Virus record (IMG/VR): IMGVR_UViG_2540341244_000005
Coordinates: 7,399-71,398 of that record
Reading direction: 5' to 3' (one strand)
Source: a virus
Taxonomy: Duplodnaviria > Caudoviricetes
DNA: 64,000 nucleotides
A program made the translations under genes and the position numbers. Positions 1-64,000 of the stretch are shown piece by piece (position 1 is the first letter of the stretch; each line of letters opens with the position of its first letter). The notes under the pieces were generated by a model that saw only the letters and a list, made by a program, of their open reading frames with translations, ran no database searches and was not told the DNA's origin.

Positions 1-104
1 TGTGTCATATCTAGCGTTTTCTGACGTGCGCGCGTCCCTCTTCCTGTGTATGCGAGATAGCCTAGAACAGAGCCTATGACCAACAGCACGATAATGTTAT
101 CCAT
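1..104 (-). CDS. Partial (runs off window) AT-rich membrane-anchored protein, probable moron
   Basis: ATG at 104 with GAAGG upstream; MDNIIVLLVIGSVLGYLAYTGRG has an N-terminal hydrophobic helix; TTTACA-18-TATCCT promoter-like site at 206-235 on the minus strand. Confidence 0.5.
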   Translation of the reverse strand, partial: MDNIIVLLVIGSVLGYLAYTGRGTRARQKTLDMT

Positions 105-239
105 ATTGACCTTCATTATTGTTTTTGCCAAGTACCCGGCGTAGGCGTCTGGGGTGCATCTGGAGTCGATTTATAGTTTCCACGTTTTGTTCCCTGTTAT
201 TTAGCAGGATATGCTTCTGTCGGCTATCCTGTAAAATCG

Positions 240-683
240 CTATCCTTCCGCCCGCGCCAGCTCCCGCCGCACACTCTCCGCCGTAATTCGCGCCGGCGGC
301 GAATCCGGGTGCTTAGCCAACCGGCCTTCTTCAATCATTTCCCACACTCGGCTGCGACCAATCGAAAGCACGAATTCCACCTCGGGGACGGTCAACAAGG
401 CCTTTTTCGTGACCAGTTCCTGGGCAGAAACCGCCGGAAGTTGCGCAAATACGAGTTTTTTAGTCTTGAATGTGACCGGCAGCACCAGCTCAAATCCGAC
501 CGGATCAACCACACTGCACCGTTTCGGGCAGCCCACGCACACGAACTTGCGATCGCGGCTAAACCAGCGGGGTTTCCGCTTCGGGCCACAGCCCAGCGCA
601 GCATACGCCGAGCCCTCCACGAGCCCCATATACGGCAAAAATCCCTTCGTAAGCAGCGTCAGCACGTCGTCCACCACACTCAT
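240..683 (-). CDS. DNA-binding protein with C-terminal excisionase-like HTH, possible late-gene regulator
   Basis: LLTVPEVEFVLSIGRSRVWEMIEEGRL resembles HTH_17; last gene of the early operon, where Mor/C activators lie in Mu. Confidence 0.6.
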   Translation of the reverse strand: MSVVDDVLTLLTKGFLPYMGLVEGSAYAALGCGPKRKPRWFSRDRKFVCVGCPKRCSVVDPVGFELVLPVTFKTKKLVFAQLPAVSAQELVTKKALLTVPEVEFVLSIGRSRVWEMIEEGRLAKHPDSPPARITAESVRRELARAEG

Positions 684-1105
684 GTCCGTTTCCTCATGGT
701 GTCCAGGGCCACAGGTTCGTCACGACCAATCACCGGTGCCCACCAACGGCCGTCGATGCCAAGCACAGGCGCACTGGCCAAGAAAGTGACCTCGTAGGTC
801 GGTAATCCGTCCAGGCCGATCCGGCCTGTCGGCACGGCGACCCGGTCGCCGCGACGGTAGGACGGGGCCGGAGCGTCCTGGGGCGATTCCCGGTCGGCGA
901 CAAGGCAACAAAGCAGTGTGGATAGGCCGGCCAGGGTGTAAAATTGGTACTGATCCCCGCCGGGGTTGTGCCAGCAGCCATCCCGCCGCAGGCGGTATGC
1001 CTCGGCCGGGCCGCCCCATTGTTCAGCCTGAAACAGCTCCAGCTTGACCGTCTTGCCCTGGTTTCGGAGCAAAATCGTTGTCGATTTTCGGCGCTTTTCG
1101 CTCAT
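680..1105 (-). CDS. Hypothetical phage early protein
   Basis: ORF coupled to neighbours; likely start MSEKRRK at 1105. Confidence 0.6.
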   Translation of the reverse strand: MSEKRRKSTTILLRNQGKTVKLELFQAEQWGGPAEAYRLRRDGCWHNPGGDQYQFYTLAGLSTLLCCLVADRESPQDAPAPSYRRGDRVAVPTGRIGLDGLPTYEVTFLASAPVLGIDGRWWAPVIGRDEPVALDTMRKRT

Positions 1106-1109
1106 CGTA

Positions 1110-1478
1110 TCAACCAACTTGAGATAGCGCGGCAGCAGCATGGAGTGCCGCTACCGCCGCTGCCTGCCGCTCCCAGAGCGTCCGACAGCCCTTGCAACGT
1201 CGTTTGTCCGTCTGTCGGCATCTGGCGCATCCCACCCGCTCCAGGGCCTCGTAGATCGCTGTCAAGCTGGGTGGCTCGCTCCCCTTGGCGGCTGGCGGCG
1301 TATCGGCCAGGGCGGCCTGGATGCGCGCCGTCTGTCGGGCCACGTTGCCGGGATAGCGCCCGGAAAGGAGCTGGAGCACAACGCTTTTGGTGATGCCCGT
1401 CGCCTTGCAGTACGCGTAAATGCTCCGATGGCGGGCCAGGATGGCGGCCCGCAACGCCTCGCGTTCGTCCGGCCCCAT
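1110..1478 (-). CDS. HTH-type DNA-binding protein with Cys-rich C-terminus
   Basis: IYAYCKATGITKSVVLQLLSGRYPG HTH-like segment; CxxC...CxxC. Confidence 0.6.
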   Translation of the reverse strand: MGPDEREALRAAILARHRSIYAYCKATGITKSVVLQLLSGRYPGNVARQTARIQAALADTPPAAKGSEPPSLTAIYEALERVGCARCRQTDKRRCKGCRTLWERQAAAVAALHAAAALSQVG

Positions 1479-1481
1479 GCG

Positions 1482-2048
1482 TCATCTTGCCATGGCCGTG
1501 GCGCGTCGCGTACCGCCGGCTTCGGCCGGCTCGGGATCAATGCCGGCTTTGCGGCACCGGCTCCACAGATCCTTGGCCAGGGTGGACAGGGCGGCCGTGT
1601 CGGTCAACCAGACATACTTTTCGACGCCGAACTGTTTGGACACCCGGGCGTCCAGACTCTTGGGCTCGTAGCCGAGCAGGCACCACAACATGAGGATATA
1701 CTTCTTCTGCCGCGCCAGCGGGCCCGCCGGGATGTCCAGGCGCTCGTAGCCGTCGACCTTGTCGCCCTTGCGCCAGTTGTGCAGACGCTTCGGCAAAAGC
1801 GGGATGTCCACGGCGGCGTGGTCGGGGAGCCACTGGGCGGCCAAGGCATCGAGCACCTGGTTGCGCTGCCCCAGCGTCAGCTTCGACCAGGAGGCCGCCT
1901 TGCCGCCCAGGATGCGGCCGAACATTTCGATCAACAAATCCCGGTCGTTCTCGTAAGAAAGCGTTGTGGCCTTCAGGAGCGTTCCGAAAAAGACCTTGCT
2001 TTGCATGTTGTAGATGGCCGCGCATGGGACGAAAGGTCGCTTTGCCAT
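1482..2048 (-). CDS. gemA: GemA-like (Mu gp16/DUF1018) regulatory protein
   Basis: ASWSKLTLGQRNQVLDAL and QKKYILMLW...SKQFGVEKYVWL match the GemA pattern; position in the early operon. Confidence 0.55.
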   Translation of the reverse strand: MAKRPFVPCAAIYNMQSKVFFGTLLKATTLSYENDRDLLIEMFGRILGGKAASWSKLTLGQRNQVLDALAAQWLPDHAAVDIPLLPKRLHNWRKGDKVDGYERLDIPAGPLARQKKYILMLWCLLGYEPKSLDARVSKQFGVEKYVWLTDTAALSTLAKDLWSRCRKAGIDPEPAEAGGTRRATAMAR

Positions 2049-2051
2049 GGG

Positions 2052-2303
2052 TTACCTCTCGGAAGCAGGGTTTTGAGGATGCTTGCGGGCACCTGCGAGC
2101 AGGGAGCAACGCACGGACGTCACGTTGTCTGGTTGCAGACAAACTTCCTGCCGGCTGGGCGTGCCGTCGTTCTTGAGCTTTTTCCCGATGCCGCCGCCGT
2201 TGCTGTAAACGACCACTAGCCGGATCGGTCCCTTGTGGCGTCGGCTGACGACGACGTCACCCGGTCGCATGGCTATTGCCGTATTGAGGACGGCAGCGGG
2301 CAT
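2052..2303 (-). CDS. Hypothetical phage protein
   Basis: ATG at 2303 overlapping the upstream stop; AGGAG RBS. Confidence 0.5.
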   Translation of the reverse strand: MPAAVLNTAIAMRPGDVVVSRRHKGPIRLVVVYSNGGGIGKKLKNDGTPSRQEVCLQPDNVTSVRCSLLAGARKHPQNPASER

Positions 2304-2533
2304 CAGCGGCTCCTTTGCGGCTTGGATGGGCGTTTGCGCACGATGAAGTGGTCTCCTGCCCGCACCCCGCAGATATACGGGATGCCGCACAGCAGTTTGC
2401 AGCCTGGGCAAACGACATTGTTGTTCATTTGCCGCGCCTGATAGGTTCCCGGGCAAAGGCAGTTCTTGTTCCCGATTTCGGTCATAAAGACCGGAGTGCC
2501 CTGGGGGAGCTTCTCTTGGTAGCTAAGATACAT
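2303..2533 (-). CDS. Hypothetical Cys-rich phage protein
   Basis: MYLSYQEKLP start with GGAGG RBS. Confidence 0.5.
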   Translation of the reverse strand: MYLSYQEKLPQGTPVFMTEIGNKNCLCPGTYQARQMNNNVVCPGCKLLCGIPYICGVRAGDHFIVRKRPSKPQRSR

Positions 2534-2544
2534 GCCCGCCTCCC

Positions 2545-2850
2545 TTAGAAATTCACTCGATAGACCGCCAATTCGGCCTCCAGTTCGGCCACCCTGGCCC
2601 GCAGCCGCGCCACCTCTTCCGGCTCGACGGCCATGGCCTCGGGCGTTGGCTCGGACGCAATTTCCTCGGCTGCCTCGGCAAACGCCGAGGCGACAAGCAC
2701 CTGCGGGCGAAACAGTTGATAGCCCGTTCCGTTCCAGAGCCGGACTTGACGTCCTTGTGGGGCGATCACGTACTTTGAGGCCACACGGCGCACCTTTCCA
2801 CGCGCGTTGACCTCGTAGGCCTCGAAGCCTGGGATGCCCCGCCATTCCAT
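2545..2850 (-). CDS. NUMOD4-like domain protein with C-terminal coiled coil
   Basis: MEWRGIPGFEAYEVNARGKVRR matches NUMOD4; no HNH motif seen. Confidence 0.6.
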   Translation of the reverse strand: MEWRGIPGFEAYEVNARGKVRRVASKYVIAPQGRQVRLWNGTGYQLFRPQVLVASAFAEAAEEIASEPTPEAMAVEPEEVARLRARVAELEAELAVYRVNF

Positions 2851-2855
2851 GCTGC

Positions 2856-3098
2856 TCACAGCAGGCACCTGTGAAGGCGGTCGGCGAAAGCCGCCACGCA
2901 GTCGAGTTTGGCAGCGACGTCCTGGGCAAAGCCAAAACCGGGGATGAGCATGGTGGCGTTGTCATACGCCAACGTGGCCTCGCCTTGGATGGACTCATGA
3001 AGCGCTGTCGCATCGCCAACAGCCAAAGGGATGGCCCCATCTGGGGTCGCCTCGCCGATCTCAATCATGCCGGTTGCCCAACAGTATGCTACGGCCAT
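2856..3098 (-). CDS. Conserved Mu-like early protein (family often annotated host-nuclease inhibitor)
   Basis: AYCWATGMIEIG...LIPG motif; AGGAG RBS. Confidence 0.55.
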   Translation of the reverse strand: MAVAYCWATGMIEIGEATPDGAIPLAVGDATALHESIQGEATLAYDNATMLIPGFGFAQDVAAKLDCVAAFADRLHRCLL

Positions 3099-3110
3099 GG
3101 TCTTCTCCTG

Positions 3111-3173
3111 GTGGCTGCTCATCAGGCCCGGGCCGCCACGCCCGGACGACCGCCCACATGGGGCGGTTTCGCA
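3111..3173 (-). ncRNA. Type II hammerhead ribozyme
   Basis: UGC-GAAA-CCGCCC(CAUGU)GGGCGG-UC^-GUCCGGGC(GUGGCG)GCCCGGGC-CUGAUGA-GCA: complete core and three stems; loop I GUGGC can pair with the 3' GCCAC. Confidence 0.9.
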
Positions 3174-3479
3174 TCAGGCGTTCGGATTCAACGCATCCTT
3201 CAGCGCCTTCCCCACATTGAGCTTGGCGCTCCGGCTGGCCTCGATATCAATGGTCGCACCGGTGCGGGGATTGCGGCCTTTGCGCGCCTTGCGTTCCACC
3301 AGTTCCAGCGTGCCCAGGCCGGGCAGCGTCACCTTGCCGCCCTCGGCCAGGATCGAGGCGGCCTCCGCGCCGAGTGCATCCAGCACATGGCTAATGGTGG
3401 TCTTCTCGTGTATGTGCTTGGTCTGCACGTCGCCGGCCAGCCGGTCCTTGATCCTGTCGATGAGTCCCGCTTTGCTCAT
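3174..3479 (-). CDS. HU/IHF-family DNA-binding protein
   Basis: MSKAGLI...VTLPGLGTLELVERKARKGRNPRTG...GKALKDALN. Confidence 0.92.
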   Translation of the reverse strand: MSKAGLIDRIKDRLAGDVQTKHIHEKTTISHVLDALGAEAASILAEGGKVTLPGLGTLELVERKARKGRNPRTGATIDIEASRSAKLNVGKALKDALNPNA

Positions 3480-3497
3480 GTTCCTTTTCCTCCACGG

Positions 3498-3794
3498 TTA
3501 CATGGTCATTCCGGCCTGGATTCTCCGAGCCTCGGTGACGTAGTTGGCGGTCATGGCCCCGGCCGAAGCCGCCCGGTTGATGAGGTCAGACAGCGCTTCG
3601 GCCTTCTTCTTCCAGCCTAACGCCTGGGCTTCGGCGCTTCGCAACACCCGCATGGGCACCACCCGATCCGTCGCAGCGTCGCAGGGCGACACGCTCCGGC
3701 TGGCGCAGTTGCCGCACAAGCTCTCGCCGCCGAGAGCCAGCGGCAAACCCACGTGGCCGCATTCCGTGCATTTGCAAGACTGCTTGCCGTCCAT
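3498..3794 (-). CDS. Hypothetical Zn-ribbon protein
   Basis: CTECG...CGNC. Confidence 0.5.
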   Translation of the reverse strand: MDGKQSCKCTECGHVGLPLALGGESLCGNCASRSVSPCDAATDRVVPMRVLRSAEAQALGWKKKAEALSDLINRAASAGAMTANYVTEARRIQAGMTM

Positions 3795-3813
3795 ACTGCC
3801 CCCGCTGGCCGGT

Positions 3814-4041
3814 CTACGGCCGATCCTGGTCCAGATGTTCCACCAGCCGGATACTGGCTGCGGCGATTTTTACCGCCTGCTGACGAGCCTTGTCGTAATG
3901 CCCATTGAGCATGGACCTGCAGACGTTCGCGCTGGCATTTGCGACAGCTCCCGCCAGCAGAAAAGCCATATCGTCTTCCGGGGGCATGGCCGGCAGCCGC
4001 TCCAGCTCCCGCACCACTTCGATGGGCAGCGCGTCCATCAC
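3814..4041 (-). CDS. Hypothetical phage protein
   Basis: ORF overlaps the upstream stop; operon continuity. Confidence 0.5.
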   Translation of the reverse strand: MMDALPIEVVRELERLPAMPPEDDMAFLLAGAVANASANVCRSMLNGHYDKARQQAVKIAAASIRLVEHLDQDRP

Positions 4042-4652
4042 AGCACCGCGATATCCAGGGCGATGGGCGCATAGCTGTCGTCATCCCGGCGCTCGTAGAC
4101 CCGCAGGAGCTTTTTCGAGCCAATCACCTGCAAGCTGTCCGCGATGGCCTCCATGGCCTCCCGCCAGCGTTTGTCCTGGATGTCGAGCTTGCGCAGGCCA
4201 AGGATTGCGCCGGTGTTGACGCGTCCTTCCGTGTCCACGGCGAAGGCCTGATTGATGATGGCCTTGATCTCTTCGGTGCTCCCCTTGGCCCATTCGGTCA
4301 GGCATTCGTCGACCAAGGACTTCGCGACCTGCAACCGTTCATCAAAGGACAGGTGGTCGCTGATCTGAAGCTGCACCTTGTATCGGCCATCGAAGCTCAT
4401 CAGGGTGATGTTGCCCTTGAGGCCGCCGCGTTTGGCCCCGTATTTCTCGGCCGACAGGTCGGCGAAGGCCTGAATGTCGCCCAGGGTGTTGGCGCGAAAG
4501 GTCCGCAACACCGCCTGCGCGTCCTTGGCAGCGCCCACGATGCCGCGCACCAGGTCATCGCGCAGCTTGTCCACCTCCTTGACCTTGCCGACCGGGATCA
4601 AGTGCTTTTTGGCGTCTTCCATGTACCCTTCGGGGATGCTCGTTTCGCTCAT
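4038..4652 (-). CDS. DUF3164 family protein
   Basis: IPEGYMEDAK...GGLKGNITLMSFDG...FDERLQVAKSLVDECL...ALDIA typical of DUF3164. Confidence 0.85.
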   Translation of the reverse strand: MSETSIPEGYMEDAKKHLIPVGKVKEVDKLRDDLVRGIVGAAKDAQAVLRTFRANTLGDIQAFADLSAEKYGAKRGGLKGNITLMSFDGRYKVQLQISDHLSFDERLQVAKSLVDECLTEWAKGSTEEIKAIINQAFAVDTEGRVNTGAILGLRKLDIQDKRWREAMEAIADSLQVIGSKKLLRVYERRDDDSYAPIALDIAVL

Positions 4653-5260
4653 GACTCCTGTTCCTCCTTCTCGAACCGGGCCAGGATGGCCCGGCAGTTT
4701 TCAATGATTTTGGCGCGGACGGCCGGTTGGTAGGGGTCGCGCTCCATAAAGGCCCGCACCAGCCGGCAGGCCGCATTGCGCTCGACCTCGAAGGGATCGG
4801 CGGCATCCTGGGGAGGGTACGGCGTGTTCACCGTGTCCTTGGCCCGTAGCGTGGCCCGAAAAAGGTACGTCGCCCCATCCCGGCCGTGGCGTTCGACAAA
4901 GCCCTCTTCAAGGAGCCATTGCCCGTATTTCCGAACATGGGTGTAGGAAACCCGAGACACCTGGGCGATGCCCGTCCAGGAGAAACCAGGCTTCGCCGAA
5001 CGGATGGCCCGCCAAGCCCGTTGGTAGAACTCCCCACTGCGAAGCCTGGCCTTGGGGTTGTAGGCGTACTTCCCGTCCTCAATGCGCGTCAGTTCCGCCC
5101 GCTTGATGAGGTCATTTATCCGGGAGCGCAGCCGGGCCTTGGCCGGCTCGTTGTCCAACCCCATTGCCTCGTAAAGCAGGGCGTTGGTGACCGGCTCCTT
5201 GCCGTTGATCGTCAGGCCCTGGATGACCAACCGCAGGCGGTCCATCTCCTCGGTTCTCAT
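4649..5260 (-). CDS. Winged-helix-like phage protein
   Basis: AWRAIR...IAQVSRVSYTHVRKYGQWLLEEGFV; directly downstream of MuB. Confidence 0.6.
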   Translation of the reverse strand: MRTEEMDRLRLVIQGLTINGKEPVTNALLYEAMGLDNEPAKARLRSRINDLIKRAELTRIEDGKYAYNPKARLRSGEFYQRAWRAIRSAKPGFSWTGIAQVSRVSYTHVRKYGQWLLEEGFVERHGRDGATYLFRATLRAKDTVNTPYPPQDAADPFEVERNAACRLVRAFMERDPYQPAVRAKIIENCRAILARFEKEEQES

Positions 5261-5976
5261 GCCCGCCTCCAGCTCTTTTGCTTCTGGATCGCCGCCACCA
5301 TGGCCGCGTCGGCCTTGTCGGTTTCGCGGGCCTTGGCCGCCTGTTCCAGCATCTGCACCATGTTGCGCACCAGCCGCATGTCGCCGTCCGAAGTGGCCCG
5401 GACCATGGCGCAGGCTTCGGGCGTCAAGTCGAGGCCGGCGGCTTCGAAGGCGAAGGCGGCGATGTCGCCTTCATCCACGGGGCCGAAGGCCACTTCCTGG
5501 GTCACGCGGGACCAGATGCGGCGGCGCTTGGACAACAGCCCGATAAGTTCCTCTTCCCCTATGAGGAGGATTGCCGCCCCGGTGGCCTCATGGATGTCGC
5601 GCAAGTCCTCGATCCGCCCGAAGGCCAGCCGGTCGGCTTCGTCCATGTAGATGGTGGCGGCCTGGCCCTGTTTGCGCCGTTTCTCCAGGACTTCGACAAT
5701 CCGCACTTTGCAGGCGTGGGCCGAACGCGGCGCTAGCGCACCCGTGACCTCAAAGCACAGCTTCCCGAGGAAGGCGGCCTGCGTCATGTCTTCCCATGCG
5801 GAAAGGAACACCCCGCCGCGCTCGGCCTGGCTGTTGCGAGCGGCAAACGTCTTGCCCCGGCCGGCCTGGCCCCAAGCCACGACAATGCCGGGCTGGCCTC
5901 GCTCGGTATCCTCGACAGTCAACACGGCCCGCTGAAAAGCGGCTACGTTGCCCGTCTCCACAAAAACCGATTTCAT
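5257..5976 (-). CDS. MuB-like AAA+ transposition ATPase
   Basis: Walker A GQAGRGKT, Walker B IYMDEAD, LRDIHE; follows the transposase. Confidence 0.92.
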   Translation of the reverse strand: MKSVFVETGNVAAFQRAVLTVEDTERGQPGIVVAWGQAGRGKTFAARNSQAERGGVFLSAWEDMTQAAFLGKLCFEVTGALAPRSAHACKVRIVEVLEKRRKQGQAATIYMDEADRLAFGRIEDLRDIHEATGAAILLIGEEELIGLLSKRRRIWSRVTQEVAFGPVDEGDIAAFAFEAAGLDLTPEACAMVRATSDGDMRLVRNMVQMLEQAAKARETDKADAAMVAAIQKQKSWRRA

Positions 5977-8084
5977 GCGTCTCCTCCCCCGTTGGCGGCC
6001 TTGCGACGGCGCTCGTAGACCGTGCGCAAGCGCGCGTAACGTCCAGCCGCGCAGGCCGCGTATTCCTCGGTTTGCTCATAGCGGGCCATCCATGCGGCGT
6101 CGGCCTCACGCAGGGCCAAGCCGTCACGAACGGCCAAATTGAAAAGGTATTCGTAGCGGTCGAGTTCATTGACGATGGTGGCCATCTGCGCCGGCGGCAC
6201 ATAGGCCGGGGCGGCTTCGATCTTGGCCCTGGCCGCGATCTTGGCGGCTTCGATGCTCTTGACGTTCGGGGCTTTCGGTTCCGGCAGAGCCGGCGTTTCG
6301 GCCTTGTCAGCCGACACCAGACGCATGCGAGTCTGTGTTTCCGGCAGCACCACGGAATTCAGGAAATCTCTGGCGTTGGCCGTGACCTGGTTTTCCAAGG
6401 CCTTCTTGTAGGCGATCTCGCTCGTCAGAACGGCCTGATCGTCAGCGGTCCCAAGGAGGCGGGCAGCCGGATGCACTTTCGGCACGGGCGTGGCCTCGCA
6501 GATCAGATTCTTGCCGGACTGGTCGTAGACGAGCACCGACCGCCGGTCCTGCTCGTCGAAGCGCACCAGCACGGGATGGCGCAGGCTATGCAAGAAGGGA
6601 TGGCGATAGGACTGCCCAAAAAGGCCCACGCCGTTGCGGTCGATGGTGCGGACCACCTTGGAGAGCATGCACAGCCGCAGCTTAAGCAGATCGCCTTCGC
6701 CAAGGCCGGGACCGGCCCCCGCAGCAAACGCCTCGGCCGGAGCTTTGCCGGCCAGGTGGCCCCGCTGGGGGCGTTCGGCATAGGCATCGAACCAACTGGC
6801 AATGGCGGTATGGGCTTCCTCAAGGGTCAGCGGCCGGCCGCCGGATGCCTCATAGACTTTGCGGTGGAGCTTCTCCCCGCGCATGAGGCGCGGTGGCTTG
6901 GATTCTATGGACGTGCCGACATATGACGGTATCCAGCGTTCAAGCTCGCCGAACGTCTTAAAAAAGCGTTCAATGGTCTTGGACTGACCGTGGTAGGGCC
7001 AAGCGAAAAGCGGGGCTATGCCGAGTTCCTGAAATACGCCGCCAAGGCCACTTTGCTTCAGGTCCACGCCGTTGAAAAACTTGCTCCGGAAGGCCCGCCC
7101 GTTGTCCAGATAGGCCACCTTCGGAAACATTCCGAGTCGCAGGCATGCCCGGCGCAGGGCCGAGGCGATGGCTTGCGTGTTTTCCGTGGGCAGGATTTCC
7201 CAGCCAAGCGGGTAGCTGGATGCCATGTCGAACCACAGCACCAGTTCCATGCGCGCCCCCTTGCCGGTCTCCGGGTCGAGAATCTCGAAATTGAGGGCAT
7301 GGCCGTCGGCCACCAGGATGTCGCCCACGCTGATTTTCGAATAATCGCGCTCGATATACGGGCAACAGTCGTCGTTCCAGGCCTTGGCTCCCTCGCGGGC
7401 GTAGACCCATTCCCCGTAATTGAGGGTCATCCACTTGCGCAGGTAGCGGTACAGCGTGATTTCGGCGCAATCCGGCAAGCCGGCGGGCTTAAATGCCTCG
7501 CGGGCCATGCGACAGACTTCGGAAAGACAATGCTTGTTGGGATGGCGGACCAGGGCGAGCAAAATTTGGGCGTGTCGTTCGGTTACAACCGGCTCCACGC
7601 GCACGCCGCCGCGTGTGTCGGCCAGGGCCAGGGCCGAGCCGGTGCGGCGCATGGCGGTCTTCCAGCGTTCCAGGGATTGGACGGACACCTTATCGCCAAG
7701 GATTTCCTTGATCTTGGGCCACACGCCGCCCCGGTAAGCGGCGACGAACTCCTTGCCGGCCTGTCCCTTGCGGGCCGCCTTGGCCAGGGCTTCGGTGTAG
7801 AGGCGCACCAGATCGGCTTTAGCCAGGGCCTTGCGGCGTTGATCCTCGGTCAGATTGGCATCGGCGGCCACGGCGGCGGGGAGATTGGCCCCCTCGTAAG
7901 CGGTAATGGCGTCCTGGATGTCCTCGGGCAAGGAGGCGGCGAGGTAGGCCTTTTCCCGCCAAGCTTTGCCCGAGCCGGCTTGTGCCGCGCAAGCCCACCC
8001 AGCTTTGCTTGCGCGGCTATTGACCGCCCGAGGTGTCACACCCAGGGCATAGGCCAATTCACTTGCTGTGTAAGCGTCCTTCAT
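5973..8084 (-). CDS. MuA-like DDE transposase
   Basis: N-terminal HTH (YTASELA); DDE motifs VADGH / YLDNG / KTIERFF; Mu-type C-terminal region. Confidence 0.95.
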   Translation of the reverse strand: MKDAYTASELAYALGVTPRAVNSRASKAGWACAAQAGSGKAWREKAYLAASLPEDIQDAITAYEGANLPAAVAADANLTEDQRRKALAKADLVRLYTEALAKAARKGQAGKEFVAAYRGGVWPKIKEILGDKVSVQSLERWKTAMRRTGSALALADTRGGVRVEPVVTERHAQILLALVRHPNKHCLSEVCRMAREAFKPAGLPDCAEITLYRYLRKWMTLNYGEWVYAREGAKAWNDDCCPYIERDYSKISVGDILVADGHALNFEILDPETGKGARMELVLWFDMASSYPLGWEILPTENTQAIASALRRACLRLGMFPKVAYLDNGRAFRSKFFNGVDLKQSGLGGVFQELGIAPLFAWPYHGQSKTIERFFKTFGELERWIPSYVGTSIESKPPRLMRGEKLHRKVYEASGGRPLTLEEAHTAIASWFDAYAERPQRGHLAGKAPAEAFAAGAGPGLGEGDLLKLRLCMLSKVVRTIDRNGVGLFGQSYRHPFLHSLRHPVLVRFDEQDRRSVLVYDQSGKNLICEATPVPKVHPAARLLGTADDQAVLTSEIAYKKALENQVTANARDFLNSVVLPETQTRMRLVSADKAETPALPEPKAPNVKSIEAAKIAARAKIEAAPAYVPPAQMATIVNELDRYEYLFNLAVRDGLALREADAAWMARYEQTEEYAACAAGRYARLRTVYERRRKAANGGGDA

Positions 8085-8128
8085 TGTGCCGCCATTTGTC
8101 CGCTTGAAAGATTTCCGCGTGTTACTTT

Positions 8129-8190
8129 CGGCTGCTCATCAGGCCGGACGCACCACCGTCCGACGACCGCCCCGCAGGGCGGTTTCGCAA
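8129..8190 (-). ncRNA. Type II hammerhead ribozyme upstream of the transposase
   Basis: UUGC-GAAA-CCGCCC(UGCG)GGGCGG-UC^-GUCGGACG(GUGGUG)CGUCCGGC-CUGAUGA-GCAG; stem I covaries with the copy at 3111-3173. Confidence 0.9.
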
Positions 8191-8193
8191 TGG

Positions 8194-8625
8194 TCAGACC
8201 GGCAGGGGGAGGGGTTCCCATTCAGGCCACCACGGAAGGAAGGAAAGACCTCCAAGGTGCCGAGCAAGTGCACGAATCTTCCGATAGCCATCCTTCCACG
8301 CCTGCCGATTAAAGCGGCTAGGACGGATAAACATGCAAGTCCGTTCCCAAAAGCGGATCGGGAATTTTGTGCTCTTGAAATATGTATAGGGAGCAGCCAG
8401 AGAGAATTCGAAGCCTTGTGCATCAAACGACAGATCGATGCCGGATTTAAAAACACGTCGTATGGCGACGAGCATCACGCTGTCGGGGACTCTGGCTTTC
8501 CGAATGACAGCATTGCAGGCGTGTTCCCCTGATATGGGGCCGTCTGCTCGCACAATGCCGTCCACAAAAGCAGCCAACGCCCTCTTGTACTGCGCTTCGC
8601 GTTTCTTGATCGTGCGTTTGTTCAT
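8194..8625 (-). CDS. Hypothetical basic protein of lower GC
   Basis: 143-aa ORF with AAGGA RBS; lower GC than flanks. Confidence 0.6.
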   Translation of the reverse strand: MNKRTIKKREAQYKRALAAFVDGIVRADGPISGEHACNAVIRKARVPDSVMLVAIRRVFKSGIDLSFDAQGFEFSLAAPYTYFKSTKFPIRFWERTCMFIRPSRFNRQAWKDGYRKIRALARHLGGLSFLPWWPEWEPLPLPV

Positions 8626-8629
8626 GATG

Positions 8630-8824: not shown

Positions 8825-8850
8825 CGCCCAACCTCCTTTCCTATTTTGAT

Positions 8851-8958: not shown

Positions 8959-8967
8959 TTCTGGCGG

Positions 8968-9617: not shown

Positions 9618-9724
9618 TTCCGATTGCTCCGATCCAAAGTTTTCGGGCCGCCGGACATTGAGGATTATTGCCGGCCCTGGTAGCTACGTTCGTAACGGTG
9701 ACATTCGTCACCCCGTGAGAAGAG

Positions 9725-14806: not shown

Positions 14807-14809
14807 GGT

Positions 14810-54723: not shown

Positions 54724-54724
54724 T

Positions 54725-56998: not shown

Positions 56999-57008
56999 GG
57001 CGGTCGTC

Positions 57009-57449
57009 ATGACGCTGGACACCGAAAAATACAGCTTTACGGACGGGAAAACCCCGCTCTCGGCCGGCGAGCTCAACACGCGGTTTTATGCCATCGTTCG
57101 CCGCCTGCATGCCCTGGAGCTGCTCTCCAACGACCTGGATGCGGCCATCGCCCAGGTCCAGAACTACGGGGTGGACCGGATCGAAAACGCGGTCAGGCCG
57201 CTGGCCGACACCCTGAAAAACGAGCTGACGGTTCTGATCGCCCAGGGGCGCGACGACCTGGCCAGCCAATCGGCGGCCGTGGAGGCCAAGCTGGGGGAAA
57301 TGGACGCGGCCATGGCCGCAGCCGCCGCCGCCATTGAGGACATCACGGCCCGGATCGCGGCGGTGGAAGCTGCCCAGCAGCAGTTGGTGGACGTGACCGT
57401 GCCCGACATCATCAAGCAGGCCAAACGACTGGCCCTCGTATTCGGATAG
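57009..57449 (+). CDS. Coiled-coil tail protein
   Basis: YSF.DG.TPL...LN.RF followed by heptad pattern. Confidence 0.6.
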   Translation: MTLDTEKYSFTDGKTPLSAGELNTRFYAIVRRLHALELLSNDLDAAIAQVQNYGVDRIENAVRPLADTLKNELTVLIAQGRDDLASQSAAVEAKLGEMDAAMAAAAAAIEDITARIAAVEAAQQQLVDVTVPDIIKQAKRLALVFG

Positions 57450-57459
57450 GGAGGGACAC

Positions 57460-57783
57460 ATGGCGATTCGAAATTGGCCACTGGCGAGTGTGGCCACCAA
57501 TACCGTCACCGACCTGGTCGCCCCTGGCGCGAACCTGGAAGTGGCCATCGTCGGGATGAGCATCTGCAACACCGGCACGCTGGACACGGCCGACGTCACG
57601 GTCACCCTCACCAGCGCCACCGGCACCATAAAAGCGACCCCGCTCAAAGCCTCCCTCGCCCCCGGAGAGTCCATCCATATCGACACGAAGATCTTCATCG
57701 CCGCCAGCGCCAACCCGGACAAGCTGCGGGTGCTTGCGACGCTGGGGAGCGTGTCCTTCCTGGCCAGCGGAGACGAGGGGTAG
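57460..57783 (+). CDS. Small beta-rich tail protein
   Basis: GGAGG RBS; 107 aa. Confidence 0.6.
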   Translation: MAIRNWPLASVATNTVTDLVAPGANLEVAIVGMSICNTGTLDTADVTVTLTSATGTIKATPLKASLAPGESIHIDTKIFIAASANPDKLRVLATLGSVSFLASGDEG

Positions 57784-57785
57784 CC

Positions 57786-58817
57786 ATGGGCATATCGAAA
57801 TTGGCCGCGCCGTCGGCCTGGACTCACGATTGGACGCTGGGCCCGGGCCTGGCCAACCTGTTCGACCTCTATCCCAGCCGGGGCGACGTCACGATCGGTG
57901 CCGCCACGAACCTGGCCACCGACCTGGACGGGCCGTCCAAGGTCTTCCGGTACGGGGCGCTCACCATCAACGCCGAGTTGTCCATCACCAACCGGGCCCG
58001 GCCGCCCATCATCCTGTGCGACTCCCTGGCCATGGGCGCTGCGGGAAAATTCGTCCTGGACTCTCTGGGCGCACGCGGCGAGTCGTCGTGGCCGTCGGCG
58101 GATTGGGTAGTGCCCCAGATCCTCCGGCTCCGGGGCAAGGCCATTTCGTTGCGGGACGTCCTTGCCGCCATCGCCGCCGCCGGCATTTTCGTAGGCGATC
58201 CCGTGTTCTGGGCGCTCCGGGAGGCCGAGCTGGGGGATTGCACCGGAACCATCGTCAGTGCGTTAGGCGCGGCCCTCATTGCCGCCGCCGGCTGTGCTCC
58301 CGGCGGCGAAGCCCAACGCGCCCCCAACCCGACCTATAATTCGCAGTGCCCCGGAAACGGCGGGTTTGCCGGGGCAAATGCCCCGGGCGGCGGCGCTGGC
58401 GGCGGCGCGGGCTCCGGCGGGACCAACCAGAGCGGCTATGGCGGCCGTGGCGGTCAGGCCCGGCCTTGGAGCGGCGGCGGGGCGGCGACGGGCGCATATG
58501 AGGGCATTGGCCTCGATGCCTGGCCGTTCGGCGGTCCTGGCGCAAACGGGCTGCGCCCCGGCGGGAGCGCTCTGATTCTCTGCCGGGGCGACGTAGCGCT
58601 CGCCGATGGGCACCAATGGAGCGCCAAAGGCGAGGACGGCACAACGGCATATTACGGAGCCCCGGGCGGCGGGCGCATCGGGTTGATCCACGCCGGGGCG
58701 CTCACCGGCGTCTTCAACGGGACCGCCGCCGGCGGCGTCAACTCCGGCACCTACGGCGCAAACGGCGGCGACGGCGTGGCCGATTGCCGGACCTTCGCCC
58801 AGATGGGTTGGAGCTGA
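57786..58817 (+). CDS. Glycine-rich fibre-like protein
   Basis: [18 protein letters not shown] repeats. Confidence 0.65.
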
Positions 58818-58819
58818 TC

Positions 58820-59623
58820 ATGGTGGTCGACACACTGTTGCAAGGCCCCAAGGGCGACACCGGACCCGCTGGCCCGGCAGGTCCGACAGGCCCGACCGGC
58901 CCCGTTGGCTCGGCCGGCCCGGCCGGACCCGTTGGACCGACCGGGCCGGCTCCGGCCTGGGTGGTGTTGGCTGGGCCGCCCCCGGCGGATGCCGGCAGCG
59001 ACGGCGATATGGTCCTCGATACCGCCGCCCCGGCCATCTACGGCCCCAAGACGGCCGGCGATTGGGGCACGGCCGTGGCCACTCTCCTGGGCCGGACCGG
59101 TCCGGCCGGCGCGACTGGCCCGACGGGGCCGGCCGGGTCCAGGGGCGACACCGGTCCTGCCGGGCCAGCCGGCCCTGCCGGACCGAACGGATCGGCCGGC
59201 ATGAACGTGGTTTGGCTGGTCGACGCCGGCATCCCGCGCGCCTCCCAGGGCCACGATGGGGACGTCTATCTCGATACCGTGACGGGCAATGTCTACGGCC
59301 CCAAATCGGCCGGCGCATGGGGCATCCCGGTGGCCAACCTCATGGGGCCGGTCGGCCCCATCGGCGTCCAAGGCCCCCAGGGAGCCAAAGGCGCAACCGG
59401 CCAGACCGGGCCGCAGGGGGAGCAAGGCCCGCCGGGCGAGATGCTCGACCACGCCGCGACCCATGCGGCCGGCGGCGGCGATCCCGTTTCGCCCCAGTCC
59501 ATCGGCGCGGCGACCGTCGACCATGACCACGACGGCATCTATGCCCGGGTGTTGCTCGGCTCGGCGGATAGTCCCCCGGAAGGGGCCTATCCCGTGGGCA
59601 CAATGTACATCAAGACGTCGTAG
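58820..59623 (+). CDS. Collagen-like (Gly-X-Y) fibre protein
   Basis: Three GPxGPx tracts separated by two DGD..LDT....YGPK.AG.WG modules. Confidence 0.8.
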
Positions 59624-59626
59624 GGG

Positions 59627-60868
59627 ATGCCAATGCCAACCGCAGTTTCGTCTTTTGGGAAGATCGTCAATATCGCCGGCTACACCTTGGCCCAGACCAT
59701 GGCGTTTATCAGCAATCTGCTGACCACCTACACCGGGGTCACTATTTACGACCAGGTTTCGACCACCAGCACGGTGTACAAATATCAGGCGTCAGCCAAG
59801 AGCATCCCCGTCTATTTCCAGATCACGGTGACCAGCACCTCGGTCATCACCATCGCAGCCTTCTATCGCTACTGGAACGCGACGACGCACACGGGCGGCA
59901 CGATGGTCGGGGAGAGCCTGACGCTCTCCACGGCCTCCGGTTCCGTCTACCTGATGGCCTGTCCTGGCGTCTTCCACATGGCGACGTGCACCGCCGGGGT
60001 CGTGGACGCGACCACCACCTGGGGGTTTTTTTTCAGTGCCACGCCGTACAACTTCCCGACGCTCCCCGGTGCGCTGCTGACCGCTCCTGCGGCGGCCGGC
60101 AACGGCGTGGTGGTCACGGTGGATAACGTAACCGGGTTCGCTGCCGGGATGAAGATCGCCATCGCAGACCCGGCGAACGGTTGGGACTTCACGACCATCA
60201 TCAGCGTGGGGGCGTCGAGTCTGACGCTGACGAAACTCACAATCCCCCTCTCCATCGGGGCCATTATTTGTGTTCCGCCGACGTTCGTCGAAAATACGTA
60301 TTATGCGGGGGCGCGTCCGGGATTATTGTTGTTTTGTGATGCGAGCCTTCTAGCGGCAACTGTCCCTTCCAGCACTTCTGCATTTACGAATTTCGCGTCT
60401 CAACCGGCAGCCCTCTTCAATATGTCAGTTTCCGGTGTTGATGGGACAACGGGAAAGACGAACACATGCCCTGTCCTTTTGCAATCCTCGGCGTTCTCCA
60501 ATGCCATTCTTGATTACGACGCACTGATATCTACCTACGCGGCCGGGACATTAAACAACTTTCTGGCTTACAGCGCGGACGGCTCCCCCATTGCCAGCGG
60601 CACGGCAACGTCCGGGACGCCCCTGACCCTGGTCAACTCGGCGATGAACTGGGCGACAAATGCCCTGATCGGCCGATATGTCGCCATTTCCGGCGGCACG
60701 AATGCTGGAATGTGCCGCAAAATCACGGCCAACGACGCCACCTCAATCACGGTCGACGAGGCGTTTCCTGCTGCCGTCAACGCCTCGTCGCAATTTGTTA
60801 TTTCTGACCATGTTTATAGATATGGTTTGAACCAAAATCTGAAAATTTTGCCCCGGGAGAAGTGGTAA
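59627..60868 (+). CDS. Thr/Ser-rich putative receptor-binding protein
   Basis: 413 aa, mosaic GC, W.TNAL.G.YV.I..GT.AG..R.I..N motif. Confidence 0.6.
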   Translation: MPMPTAVSSFGKIVNIAGYTLAQTMAFISNLLTTYTGVTIYDQVSTTSTVYKYQASAKSIPVYFQITVTSTSVITIAAFYRYWNATTHTGGTMVGESLTLSTASGSVYLMACPGVFHMATCTAGVVDATTTWGFFFSATPYNFPTLPGALLTAPAAAGNGVVVTVDNVTGFAAGMKIAIADPANGWDFTTIISVGASSLTLTKLTIPLSIGAIICVPPTFVENTYYAGARPGLLLFCDASLLAATVPSSTSAFTNFASQPAALFNMSVSGVDGTTGKTNTCPVLLQSSAFSNAILDYDALISTYAAGTLNNFLAYSADGSPIASGTATSGTPLTLVNSAMNWATNALIGRYVAISGGTNAGMCRKITANDATSITVDEAFPAAVNASSQFVISDHVYRYGLNQNLKILPREKW

Positions 60869-62427
60869 TGGCCGCCGTTTCCGGCCTTGCGTCCCCCGGC
60901 GCGCCTTCGTCCCCGGCCCTGGTGTCGCCGTATGTCGCCATCACCTATTCGTATCTGTCCGGATTGGCGGCCCCTGACCTGTCCAGCCAGGTGACCGGCC
61001 CCACCACGGTCTGGATGTATGACGGCCAGGAGTGGCGTCCGGCATCGTTTATCCACAACCACGACCTCGCCTACGCTCCCATCGCCAGGGGCGTGACCAA
61101 CGGGGATTTCCATAACCACGGCTCCGGGGATGGCGCGCCGATCCATTATGCAACCCTGCTGGGCCTGCCGACCATTCCCGACACCCCGGCCGGCGTGGGC
61201 CTGGATGCCGTCACCAACGACGCCCAGGTCAAGCGGTCCGAGCTGGGCATGCCCGGCGGCGTGGCCAGCCTGGACGGCAACGGGTTGGTGGCACAGGAGC
61301 CGGCCAGCGCCACCTCCACGCCTGGGGCGCTCAAGATCGTCAAAACCGGGGTTTCCGGGCTGTTGGACGCCTGGATCTCGGCCGCGTCCACGGCCATCAA
61401 GGGGCTGGTGCAGCTGGCCACGGCCGCCGAAGCCAAGGCCGGAACCGTCGACGACAAGGCCGTCACCCCGGCCGGCCTGGCCGCGTCGGCCAAGGGGCTC
61501 ATCAACGCCTATACCAATATCTACGTGCGCCCCGATGGCAACGACGCCAACGACGGCACGGCCAACAACGCGGCCCACGCCAAACTGACCATCGCCGGGG
61601 CGCTTTCCAGCATCGCCGGCAAGCTCATCGCCCCGGGCGTGACCGTGACCATCCAGGTGGCGGATGGAACGTATTCTGTTCCCGCGACCATAGCTCTCGA
61701 TCATCCCGACGGGGATAAAATATCAATTCTTGGCAACACTTCAGCGGAAACAAGTGTTCCCATAACAGCCATCAACGCAGCCGCGAAAACTCTCGCCGTG
61801 GTTGGAGATTATACGGGCAGTCTCCTGGCTGGCGACATTTTCGGGCTCCTCGGCAGCAGCACCAGCGGGCTCAACGGAGCCTACGTTGCTTCGAGCGTCG
61901 CTTTCGATGGGACATATACGGTTATCACGTGCGCGACCGAAAGCTTTGCCTCGGAAGTGGTCGGCGGTGGATACGTCCTCATCAAGCCGTGCAACAGGTG
62001 CGTACTTAACTTCGCGGCGTATGGGTTTAACATTACAACAAAGATCAAAAATATTAATGGTTTTCGATTTAACGGAGTAGGCGGAACCGTTTACAAAGCC
62101 GTAATGTCTTCACAGACTGGAGCGTTTGGCACCATTGTTAACTGCATAGCCCACAATATGGGTTACGGTTATTCCGCCTCCATGATGTCACTATTGCAGA
62201 CAAACGGATGCATATCAAAGAGCTGTTATTCTGGATTCAACGCCCTTTCCATGGGTTGCATGACATGGACTGGCAATAAAAACATTAGTGATTCATGTAC
62301 ATTCGGGGCTAATCCTTACGGCATGTCCTTCATGGGGTACACGGCGAACTTCATAGCGCGCAACAATACGACAAACTTCTCTCCTGCTGTTGGAACTGCC
62401 GGCTCCGGGAACTCTTTCATTTTGTGA
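60868..62427 (+). CDS. Tail fibre protein with AT-rich variable C-terminus
   Basis: VGL..V.ND.Q, GVASLD..G, AST..KG.VQLAT..EA.AG..AVTP fibre repeats, IYV..DGNDANDG. Confidence 0.85.
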   Translation: MAAVSGLASPGAPSSPALVSPYVAITYSYLSGLAAPDLSSQVTGPTTVWMYDGQEWRPASFIHNHDLAYAPIARGVTNGDFHNHGSGDGAPIHYATLLGLPTIPDTPAGVGLDAVTNDAQVKRSELGMPGGVASLDGNGLVAQEPASATSTPGALKIVKTGVSGLLDAWISAASTAIKGLVQLATAAEAKAGTVDDKAVTPAGLAASAKGLINAYTNIYVRPDGNDANDGTANNAAHAKLTIAGALSSIAGKLIAPGVTVTIQVADGTYSVPATIALDHPDGDKISILGNTSAETSVPITAINAAAKTLAVVGDYTGSLLAGDIFGLLGSSTSGLNGAYVASSVAFDGTYTVITCATESFASEVVGGGYVLIKPCNRCVLNFAAYGFNITTKIKNINGFRFNGVGGTVYKAVMSSQTGAFGTIVNCIAHNMGYGYSASMMSLLQTNGCISKSCYSGFNALSMGCMTWTGNKNISDSCTFGANPYGMSFMGYTANFIARNNTTNFSPAVGTAGSGNSFIL

Positions 62428-62434
62428 GGCAACT

Positions 62435-62938
62435 ATGCAGCTCGTCATCCGCAACGGGGCCATCGTGGCCACCCATCCCGATGGCCAGGATATCGCCGGG
62501 CTGTACCCCGACGGCATCGCGGTACAAGTCCCCAATGGGACGCCTGCCGAGGTCGGCCAGCCGTGGACGGTGGATCTGGACATGGCCAAGACGGCCGTTT
62601 GCGCCGACATCGACGCACGAGCCGAGAAACTGCGCCAGATGGTCCTGACCCCCGGGGCCGGCCAGATGGCCGCCTATCAGGAAAAGGAACGCCAAGCGCG
62701 CCTGTTGCAGGCCGATCCGAATCCCGAAGAGGGCAACTACCCCGATATCTATAATGAGGTTGGCATCACCGCCGACACGGCCCAGGAGGTGGCGGCGGCG
62801 GTCCTGGAGGCTGCCGGACAGTGGCGCGCCTATGGTCGGATGGTGGAGCGCGCCCGGCTGACCGGCAAGAAAGCCGTTGGCCAGGCGGCCGATCTGGCCG
62901 GCATCCTGGCCGCCCGCGACGGGGTGACCTGGCCATAA
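62435..62938 (+). CDS. Tail fibre assembly/DUF4376-like protein
   Basis: EVGITADTAQEVA...W...VE.ARL motif. Confidence 0.7.
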   Translation: MQLVIRNGAIVATHPDGQDIAGLYPDGIAVQVPNGTPAEVGQPWTVDLDMAKTAVCADIDARAEKLRQMVLTPGAGQMAAYQEKERQARLLQADPNPEEGNYPDIYNEVGITADTAQEVAAAVLEAAGQWRAYGRMVERARLTGKKAVGQAADLAGILAARDGVTWP

Positions 62939-62942
62939 AAGC

Positions 62943-63020
62943 GGAGCAGGCGGGACGGGTGCAACCGTCCCACTGGCCCGGCGTGGTGACGCCGGTCCAC
63001 CGGCTTTCGCCAGCTGCTCC
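62943..63020 (-). ncRNA. Putative tRNA-sized cloverleaf RNA divergent from com (copy 2)
   Basis: GGAGCAG/CTGCTCC, GGC-GAAA-GCC, CCGGCGT/ACGCCGG, GGGACGG-TTGCAC-CCGTCCC; covaries with 11683-11756. Confidence 0.65.
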
Positions 63021-63084
63021 CTCCCCTGCGCATCAAGGGTAGGACGGGCGTAGCAGGCGGCAGCGCAACGTGTAAAGGTTGGAG

Positions 63085-63270
63085 ATGCGGGAGATTCGAT
63101 GCGGAGGGTGTAACAAGCTGTTGGCCAGGGGAGAGGTGGTCGACCTCTCCATTAAGTGCCCCCGGTGTGGGGAACTCAACCACGTGAGGGCCTTCACGAG
63201 CCCCGACCTAGAGAGCCAGAGAGCCCCGCAGAGGGAGCCCTCGCGTGGATCACAAAAAATCGGTCTTTGA
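63085..63270 (+). CDS. com: Com zinc-finger translational activator
   Basis: EIRCGGCNKLLA...IKCPRCGELN; overlaps the MTase start. Confidence 0.9.
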   Translation: MREIRCGGCNKLLARGEVVDLSIKCPRCGELNHVRAFTSPDLESQRAPQREPSRGSQKIGL

Positions 63271-64000
63271 CAACGGGATACTCTACAATGGCGATTCCTT
63301 GGCCGTCCTTCGGGATCTGCCGGACGGCATGATTGACGCCGTTCTGACCGATCCGCCGTATTCGAGCGGCGGCCTGCACGCTGGCGCGCGACGCGCCGAC
63401 CCGGCCCAAAAGTACCAGTCGACCGGGACCAAGCGGATTTACCCGCCGATGCTCGGCGACTGCAAGGACCAGCGGAGTTTCATCCTATGGGCGACCCTGT
63501 GGCTGTCCGAATGCTGGCGCTTGGCCCAGTCTGGAGCGCCTTGCCTGGTGTTCTCGGATTGGCGGCAACTTCCCGCCATGACGGATGCCATCCAGGCGGC
63601 AGGCTGGGAGTGGCGCGGCATTGTGGTCTGGCACAAGCCGTCAGCCCGGCCCATGTTGGGCAGTTTCAAGCGCGACTGCGAGTTCGTGATCCATGCCGTC
63701 AAAGCGCCGGCCAAGGTGTTTACCCGGCGCTGCTTTCCGGGCGTTTACACCCACCATGTCAACGCTGCCGCCAAGGTCCACTTGACGAGCAAGCCCGTGC
63801 CACTCCTGGTTGACCTCCTCGGCGTTGTACCCGATGGCGGCACGGTCCTGGACCCATTTGTGGGCGGGGGCACCACGCCCATGGCCTGCATTGAGACCAG
63901 CCACAAGTTTCTGGGAGTGGAGTTGTCCAAGGACTACTTTGAGTTGGCAAGCGAGCGGATCAGGACGGCGGAGATCGCCTCGGGCATGCCTCCGAAATAA
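63245..64000 (+). CDS. Orphan N6-adenine/N4-cytosine DNA methyltransferase (beta class)
   Basis: TDPPY catalytic motif precedes H...KP and DPFVGGGTT SAM-binding motif. Confidence 0.93.
   Translation: MDHKKSVFDNGILYNGDSLAVLRDLPDGMIDAVLTDPPYSSGGLHAGARRADPAQKYQSTGTKRIYPPMLGDCKDQRSFILWATLWLSECWRLAQSGAPCLVFSDWRQLPAMTDAIQAAGWEWRGIVVWHKPSARPMLGSFKRDCEFVIHAVKAPAKVFTRRCFPGVYTHHVNAAAKVHLTSKPVPLLVDLLGVVPDGGTVLDPFVGGGTTPMACIETSHKFLGVELSKDYFELASERIRTAEIASGMPPK

Follow-up and report, generated by a model that had tools for sequence, protein, structure and literature searches.

The stretch of DNA analysed here, referred to as the window, is 64,000 bases long and corresponds to bases 7399–71398 of a single 71,398-base virus record in IMG/VR (IMGVR_UViG_2540341244_000005); positions in it are given with the prefix w. 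The window is best read, with a probability of about three in four, as a compound locus in which parts of three unrelated Mu-like phage lineages, here called alpha, beta' and D', have been brought together by a nested insertion and a deletion fusion. What is left is prophage wreckage, the outcome of ordinary decay, and it contains an uncultured phage architecture that is of interest in its own right. Polylysogeny with transposable phages can in this way yield misleading chimeric viral genomes in catalogues, in this case one of 71 kb that holds parts of three phages.

Genes were picked with a GC3-guided caller (GC3, G+C content at third codon positions) and named using profile searches with PHROGs and Pfam, with PADLOC used for defence genes. 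The left limit of the record falls inside a gene, and 7,398 bases can be read to the left of w1 and none to the right of w64000. The right limit coincides exactly with the stop codon of a methylase gene and resembles a provirus cut. No tRNA genes were found.

A Mu-like phage inside the right end of another

Alpha sits 23 bases inside the right end of beta, flanked by a duplication of the sequence TCAGT, and both junctions were recovered. At the junction in the window, the terminus of alpha at w10725 is followed by the duplicated target and then by a beta right end that lacks its terminal bases. The extent of the missing part was determined by alignment with three related loci (L152, L154 and L170), whose right-end consensus runs through TCAGT and continues for 22–23 bases past w10726. 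A pattern search for the missing terminal bases of beta found the second junction in L235, where the minus strand reads two alpha-type repeats, an end in CA, TCAGT, the missing 23 beta bases and then flanking DNA. L235 is from the same organism as the window, as are L083 and L247; this rests on exact matches of X1 loose ends to junction strings of L247 and on the near-identity of L083 to the left part of the record. An earlier interpretation, made from the letters of the window and referred to here as the sequence-only reading, had proposed nested Mu-like prophages, and had predicted a TCAGT target duplication and an end with TCTCA-type repeats closing in CA, followed by TCAGT and the rest of the other phage's end. 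The nesting was borne out and each of these features is seen in L235. The reciprocal junction had been expected to the right of w64000, but it lies instead at alpha's own right end.

The ends of alpha have the structure expected of a transposable phage of this kind. Three copies of a transposase-site repeat, TCTCATYTTGCC, are found at w10552–10713, compared with 0 expected by chance. Two copies of the motif are present at the right end in L235, inverted relative to those at the left end, and the terminal copy at each end lies 9 bases from the tip. The terminus at w10725 is identical in three sibling copies (L247, L246 and L245), where it lies beside unrelated flanks.

The window contains one early region, as the sequence-only reading had noted, and its end adjoins mom, with 28 bases between w10725 and the mom stop codon. 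That reading had assigned the early region to a phage with divergent operons. It is contiguous instead with minus-strand late genes of its own in the left flank, where an endolysin, a TerS-like protein, TerL, a portal and the N-terminal part of F are found downstream of it, the F gene fragment beginning at the first base of the record. The same order, consisting of MuA, MuB, further early genes, lysis, TerS, TerL, portal, F and protease, is found in the relatives L073, L075 and L076, which assigns the early region to alpha, a third phage with Mu gene order. Alpha encodes a MuA-like DDE transposase and an adjacent MuB-like transposition ATPase, and is thus a Mu-like transposable phage; its right end carries a C-5 methylase gene and a different tail. 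The TerL in the left flank is 27% identical to the TerL of D' in the window. The description of a single packaging block (w32688–38741) consequently holds inside the window, but a second TerS-like gene, TerL and portal lie in the left flank.

In the canonical order of bacteriophage Mu, the early genes (c, ner, A and B) are followed by lysis, TerS, TerL, portal, F, G, I, T, tail and com/mom genes, and both alpha and the relatives of beta follow this order. Further similarities to Mu are the 5-base target duplication, the repeated transposase sites at the ends, and the Mu-type I, T, sheath and Mom families of beta'. The differences from Mu are the slots with cargo genes in alpha and the beta relatives, the reduction of beta' to a right arm and the departure of D' from the Mu order.

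The portal gene of alpha (bases 774–1939 of the record, to the left of the window) is spread over three frames here and is intact in L073. L083 is 99.26% identical to the left 9.2 kb of the record, and 66 of the 73 differences are single-base indels. As these may be assembly errors in either record, the possibility that the portal and other alpha genes are pseudogenes was rejected. Alpha is probably the only active element at this locus, because close sibling copies are present in the same organism.

Beyond the right end of beta, the flank includes genes for a tyrosine integrase and a Toprim/AAA_25 primase-like protein, and a Pfam profile search detected no phage early genes there. In L236 the integrase and primase-like genes lie in an island of lower GC content (bases 1794–6185) beyond the beta right end. 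This suggests that the Mu-type prophage itself is in or beside an integrative island. A near-identical 27-base G-rich doubled motif occurs in L235 (bases 1–50, minus strand) and in the unrelated D-type genome G004 (around bases 3920–3950), in both cases in the flanks.

A hybrid G gene joins beta' to D'

At its other end, beta' is joined to D' within a small gene, G, which is broken and of mixed origin. D homology ends at w32956 and beta homology begins at w32961, and the 6 bases at the join, CGGCCA, are common to both. Register and frame are both lost at the join, with the beta part starting at approximately codon 73 in another frame and about 43 codons missing. Nucleotide homology to the beta relatives covers w20284–31226 and, after a gap, w32692–32961; identity is 88.7% with L062 over w20284–28610, 92.2% with it over w28635–31226 and 78–89% with other relatives. 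One contig from run X1 (w32922–34063) crosses the G junction with 0 differences. As X1 is possibly the source data of the record, this bridging is an assembly check and not an independent sample. An exact 60-mer across the junction had no match in the genome contigs, and the TerL of D' found only three distant loci there, with 28–39% identity. A breakpoint in the F/G region had been foreseen in the sequence-only reading. It had also described a TerS-TerL-portal-F-G block that reads into a Mu-type head and tail module; the families were confirmed by the profile searches, but the G of this block is broken.

As both breakpoints are in the same small gene and in the same orientation, recombination between the G genes of adjacent or nested prophages is indicated, and an out-of-frame join of non-equivalent codons is more in keeping with a fusion by deletion than with a reciprocal inversion. 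The hybrid junction is present in the sequence, and from it we infer both the former layout and the deletion. A D prophage would have lain next to a Mu-order, Mu-type beta prophage, or one would have been nested in the other, and the G genes of both would have pointed the same way. A deletion from one G to the other, imprecise and at the level of microhomology, would have removed the left end, early, lysis and packaging genes of beta, whatever separated the prophages, and the left end and early genes of D together with the block downstream of its G. The remnant combines two right ends and two virion modules with a single packaging block and a broken G and, having no transposase, cannot move or replicate by itself. 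The third phage, alpha, complete and in Mu order, transposed into the beta right end 23 bases from its tip, duplicating TCAGT, and either the fusion or this insertion may have come first.

The present content of beta' is consistent with such a loss. The Mu-type late families (phrog_328, phrog_371, phrog_165, phrog_185 and Pfam Mom) are all present, and w10731–32961 contains no early genes, no transposase of its own, no left end and an incomplete right end. In the beta relatives L062, L064, L066 and L070 the order is portal, F, G, a variable cargo slot and I, and their own portal and F are only 25–27% and 44–47% identical, respectively, to the D' proteins. A beta-type portal was found in 20 loci, all of them outside the records of this organism, and its absence there is weak evidence for the loss of the beta arm.

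Several points weigh against the reconstruction. The host chromosome was not located, so the loss of the left arm of beta and of the early arm of D is a matter of inference, and the right end of D' and the DNA to the right of w64000 are outside the record. Single-base errors are likely in the left part of the record, where the alpha portal is in three frames and that of a relative is intact. No read or contig examined spans the region from I (w31182) to F (w33189). The listed X1 contigs stop at both edges of w31231–32890, a 1.66-kb piece that includes the 3' part of G and a SIR2-like gene, and the word depth of this piece is 901.7, approximately twice the 420–441 of its neighbours, though depth is not copy number. 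The contig with the other low-GC cargo also has a raised depth figure, 669. If the 1.66-kb piece is present twice, the link to I and T of beta' could be a choice made during assembly, but the hybrid G junction would stand.

These points are the basis for an alternative in which the locus is an assembly chimera, with beta and D being separate and possibly complete prophages that were misjoined via the repeated 1.66-kb piece. The listed X1 contigs end at w31200/31231 and w32890/32922 with the deeper piece between them, the organism holds several related Mu-like copies that are 84–98% identical, and the left part of the record has indel-type errors. The gaps at w31200–31231 and w32890–32922, however, prove nothing either way. 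The switch between D and beta lies within a contig of ordinary depth that bridges it without differences, and a D-type G is fused to a beta-type G whatever the status of the piece. Beta-type sequence extends without a break between w32961 and w32692, just as it does in L062. A cargo slot separating G from I is characteristic of the beta type, and no 20-mer from either edge recurs in the examined loci of this organism. The lack of a beta-type portal among its IMG/VR records also speaks against a separate beta prophage. We consider a chimera of this kind unlikely.

The sequence-only reading had favoured an inversion, in which a divergent-type phage that included the early region of the window was inserted into a Mu-type right end, and inverted copies of F/G then flipped the segment between them. 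A divergent-type phage does exist (see below), the breakpoint is in G, and TCAGT flanks an insertion into a Mu-type right end. Against this, the early region continues on the same strand into an endolysin, a TerS-like protein, TerL, a portal and F that belong to its own phage, an order shared by relatives, and the alpha MuA is just 30–36% identical to the MuA of D-type relatives, while the packaging and head genes of D' are mostly 60–89% identical to theirs. The 7.4-kb left flank contains neither the plus-strand G, F, portal and terminase genes nor the second MuA/B pair that an inversion predicts. The phage at the reciprocal junction has a different tail and a C-5 methylase at its right end and is followed by the integrase island, and the join in G is out of register. 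In addition, a DNA self-comparison of the record revealed no long repeats shared between modules, merely four short matches, and hence no large inverted repeats remain to support flipping. An inversion is accordingly very improbable.

A working dual-structure element, with one packaging machine serving two virion modules, or a remnant exploited as a particle-producing or satellite-like system with alpha as its helper, is scarcely credible even though both virion modules have long open reading frames (ORFs) with full-length profile matches. The lineages of both modules elsewhere have their own, very different portal and F, and the join leaves G broken. A transposase, a left end and a recognisable late activator are all missing from the remnant, the beta right end is split by alpha, the pairing was seen in 0 of 60 F-related and 0 of 11 protease-I-related loci, and the remnant without alpha, at about 53 kb, is larger than the 36–42 kb of related records. 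The oddity originally flagged, one packaging module between two virion modules, thus needs no new kind of element.

Divergent packaging and head operons in the D type

The junction in D' between the packaging operon and the divergently oriented lysis and head genes is native to the D type, because homology is unbroken across it in five relatives, 8 of 60 related loci have the same arrangement and it is present in a complete genome, G004. Nucleotide identity to L002 is approximately 75% without a break over w33029–44929, and L003, L005, L006 and L043 are likewise about 75% identical, starting at w33029 or around w33670 and continuing across the intergenic region and the lysis genes to the sheath gene. 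These five loci are from five different samples. At the amino acid level, the packaging proteins of D' are 57–89% identical to those of L002, L003 and L005. The 60 loci were obtained by searching IMG/VR with the F protein of D'; the protease is on the opposite strand upstream of TerL in eight, among them these five close relatives, 41 have the usual co-oriented order and the remaining 11 are too short. A contig from wastewater (run X2) also bridges the divergent packaging/lysis junction; runs X2–X4 contain diverged relatives only.

G004 (42,114 bases, rated 100% complete) is colinear with D'. Its order is methylase, fibres, tail, head and lysis genes, followed by TerS, TerL, portal, F, G and approximately 5.5 kb of unknown genes, and then an early region with a MuA-like gene. 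The two outer blocks share one strand and the middle, packaging block is on the other. The right-end repeats of G004 lie about 75–100 bases beyond its methylase stop codon. A phage of the type early, inverted packaging, lysis-head-tail had been postulated in the sequence-only reading, and G004 and the other IMG/VR relatives show that it exists. The distinct character of the second virion module was likewise upheld by the profile searches, which identified a different protease, scaffold and capsid, a P2-type tail, and a Com-like ORF with a methylase. Its head and tail families (phrog_976, 673, 1005, 23, 28, 788, 52 and 6) include those of a P2/BcepMu-like contractile tail.

The D type is therefore an uncultured Mu-like clade in which the packaging operon is inverted and lies back to back with the lysis-head-tail operon. 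In the phage collection, identity between the TerL of D' and its counterparts in cultured phages does not exceed 33%, and a limited literature search and the phage-collection searches found no published description of this layout. The nearest known arrangements differ from it in several respects. BcepMu (annotation of NC_005882) resembles D' in having a protease with a nested scaffold equivalent, a T-equivalent capsid and a P2-like contractile tail, and 13 Burkholderia phage records were among the 43 blastn matches to the protease-capsid region of D'. In BcepMu, however, it is the early arm that is inverted, and a single strand carries TerS, TerL, portal, F, G, protease and capsid in one uninterrupted series. 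The D type lacks this co-orientation, with only its packaging block oriented away from the lysis-head-tail genes. In Pseudomonas phages of the B3-like/D3112-like group (JBD67, PM105, JD18 and others) the protease-scaffold-capsid genes are about 65% identical to those of D' in nucleotide sequence, but the head genes alone match, and they lie approximately 20–23 kb into genomes of 38–40 kb.

Burkholderia phage KS10 is described as a Mu-like phage with head-assembly genes split into two modules and about 11 kb between the capsid modules (PMC2628397). In its annotation (NC_011216), F, portal, TerL and TerS are transcribed away from the protease, scaffold and capsid genes, as they are in the D type. 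In KS10, however, lysis and packaging genes together form an arm at the far left end, and the head modules are kept apart by the entire early region (gp13–gp27, approximately 9 kb). In the D type the two modules are back to back, the lysis genes are with the head genes and the early region is beyond the packaging block. Only about 160 bases and the lysis genes separate packaging from protease in D' and G004, and they are not of the KS10 type. The D type is thus a second kind of split head module after KS10, and its layout invites the question of how two divergent operons are coordinated in late transcription.

Between the divergent operons, a terminator scan found a plus-strand hairpin that resembles a terminator and has a T-run (w38775–38797). 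Antisense read-through from the early side could be halted there, ahead of the late lysis operon. An ORF at w40264–40800 (plus strand) with a weak ClpP/crotonase-like PHROG match overlaps, in another frame, the start of the 435-residue protease. L002 matches 362 of the 435 residues and L003 matches all of them. These observations may reflect a frameshift or an alternative start.

Sibling copies, cargo genes and feature coordinates

Other alpha-type copies are present in this organism. The left end of alpha2 (G003), which is 84–95% identical to alpha, adjoins a fossil right end of beta type from which only the last 6 bases are missing, at another position than in the alpha case and in the same orientation. 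In L244 (bases 13796–14118, equivalent to L246 around base 11225) the alpha2 left end lies against a fragment of approximately 110 bases from the 3' end of mom together with a beta-type right end. On the sequence evidence this is a second, independent insertion of an alpha-type phage into a beta end in the same organism. A third copy, in L247 (13,160 bases), combines a left end of alpha type with an early region that is 98% identical to w3371–10725, and is fused illegitimately to a copy of w27850–28547 (96%) and then to w10754–12620 with mom (95%). The junctions lie near base 10577 and at 11274–11295. Both are confirmed by X1 contigs, and loose ends of run X1 match the L247 junction strings exactly. 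Stx-converting phage records that are annotated as containing an inserted Mu-like phage also represent, as far as the record annotation goes, a transposable phage nested in a prophage. Here, in contrast, the target is the terminal 23 bases of the right end of another transposable phage, both junctions were recovered and there is a second case in the same organism.

Scanning a metagenome for the left-end motif of alpha gave two matches. One, L251, is a true end in an unrelated flank; the other, L250, was judged to be a chance match and dropped. Two of the five alpha-type left ends with readable flanks (L245, L247 and L251 being counted) adjoin beta-type ends, both in this organism, a count that is suggestive yet too small to claim targeting. 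The idea that alpha-type phages insert preferentially into the terminal transposase-binding region of beta right ends, disabling a rival, is a speculative and rather doubtful one. It arises because two alpha-type copies adjoin beta right ends in the same orientation, 23 and 6 bases from the tip, and because a third is fused to beta-type late fragments and the terminal site of beta resembles the binding motif of alpha. If they are not due to chance, the insertions would point to end-directed targeting between rival phages.

The coordinates of all features are listed in Table 1. The small zinc-finger ORF that overlaps mom in beta' was identified by eye, and we take it to be Com-like.

Table 1. 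Features of the three Mu-like elements in the window (blank cells, nothing recorded)
Element	Feature	Position (w)	Strand	Support or remarks
alpha	Left arm	record start to 10725 (1–10725 in window)	minus	Mu gene order
alpha	Small island	3031–4074	plus	inside alpha
alpha	MuB	5257–5976	minus	phrog_296, 1.6e-39
alpha	MuA	5973–8084	minus	phrog_310, 6.3e-99, residues 1–679
alpha	Ner-like	8968–9186		early region
alpha	Regulator	9183–9617		early region
alpha	CI-like repressor	9825–10448	plus	Pfam Phage_CI_repr
alpha	Left end	10552–10725	minus	three transposase-site repeats; terminus 10725
	Target duplication	10726–10730		5 bases, TCAGT on minus strand; from alpha insertion
beta'	Whole remnant	10731–32961		right arm only of Mu-type phage: partial G, I, T, tail, com, mom
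beta'	Right end	10731–10753	minus	terminal 23 bases missing
beta'	mom	10754–11503	minus	Pfam Mom PF25680, 8.8e-76; phrog_1384
beta'	Presumed Com-like zinc-finger ORF	11436–11627	minus	overlaps mom
beta'	Fibres and fibre assembly	11794–16234	minus	PHROG
beta'	Baseplate	16238–18290	minus	PHROG
beta'	Two cargo ORFs	18404–19087, 19534–20253	plus	inserted in baseplate operon
beta'	Baseplate hub proteins	20265–23342	minus	PHROG
beta'	Tape measure	23342–25495	minus	PHROG
beta'	Chaperone	between tape measure and tube	minus	
beta'	Tube	25978–26352	minus	PHROG
beta'	Sheath	26368–27792	minus	phrog_165
beta'	Head-tail proteins	27789–29100	minus	PHROG
beta'	Capsid T	29110–30015	minus	phrog_371
beta'	Protease I	30016–31182	minus	phrog_328
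beta'	SIR2-like cargo gene	31236–32675	minus	Pfam SIR2_2, 2.7e-24; low GC; variable slot between G and I
beta'/D'	Hybrid gene G, broken	32688–33049	minus	first 31 codons D-type, rest beta-type
D'	Whole remnant	32956–64000		packaging on minus strand, divergent from lysis, head, P2-like tail, com, methylase
D'	Mu F-like protein	33189–34421	minus	PHROG
D'	Portal	34643–36172	minus	PHROG
D'	TerL	36285–37775	minus	PHROG, Pfam
D'	TerS-like	37750–38193	minus	Pfam DUF1804/Phage_terminase and PHROG support for packaging block
D'	Two small ORFs	38186–38741	minus	packaging block
D'	Divergent intergenic region	38742–38901		about 160 bases between packaging and lysis operons
D'	SLT endolysin	38902–39408	plus	Pfam SLT
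D'	Protease	40578–41885	plus	phrog_976
D'	Scaffold	41882–42253	plus	phrog_673
D'	Capsid	42266–43198	plus	phrog_1005
D'	Adaptor	43559–44002	plus	PHROG
D'	Sheath	44798–46282	plus	PHROG
D'	Tube	46295–46819	plus	PHROG
D'	Tape measure	47462–49783	plus	PHROG
D'	Baseplate and fibres	49783–62938	plus	PHROG
D'	Com-like ORF	63085–63270	plus	
D'	N6/N4 methylase	63245–64000	plus	Pfam N6_N4_Mtase

Two slots in beta' contain cargo. The SIR2-like gene between G and I matches the PADLOC models PDC-S25, ThsA, Lamassu and Dsr-like and is likely a prophage-borne defence gene. The slot holds different DNA in the beta relatives, and no relatives of the SIR2-like protein were found in IMG/VR viral contigs. The second slot (w18404–20253) has a GC content of 0.43 and a GC3 of 0.32–0.35, and its two ORFs had no Pfam, PHROG or PADLOC match. 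It aligns to nothing in the relative L065, in which the flanking matches are 372 bases apart. The second of these ORFs is flanked by a 139-base direct repeat (w19153–19291 and w20283–20421, 86% identity). A 68-base repeat with a hairpin (w18272–18339 and w31164–31231, 79% identity) was found at the inner edge of both cargo slots, and may mark a shared cargo-insertion or terminator site.

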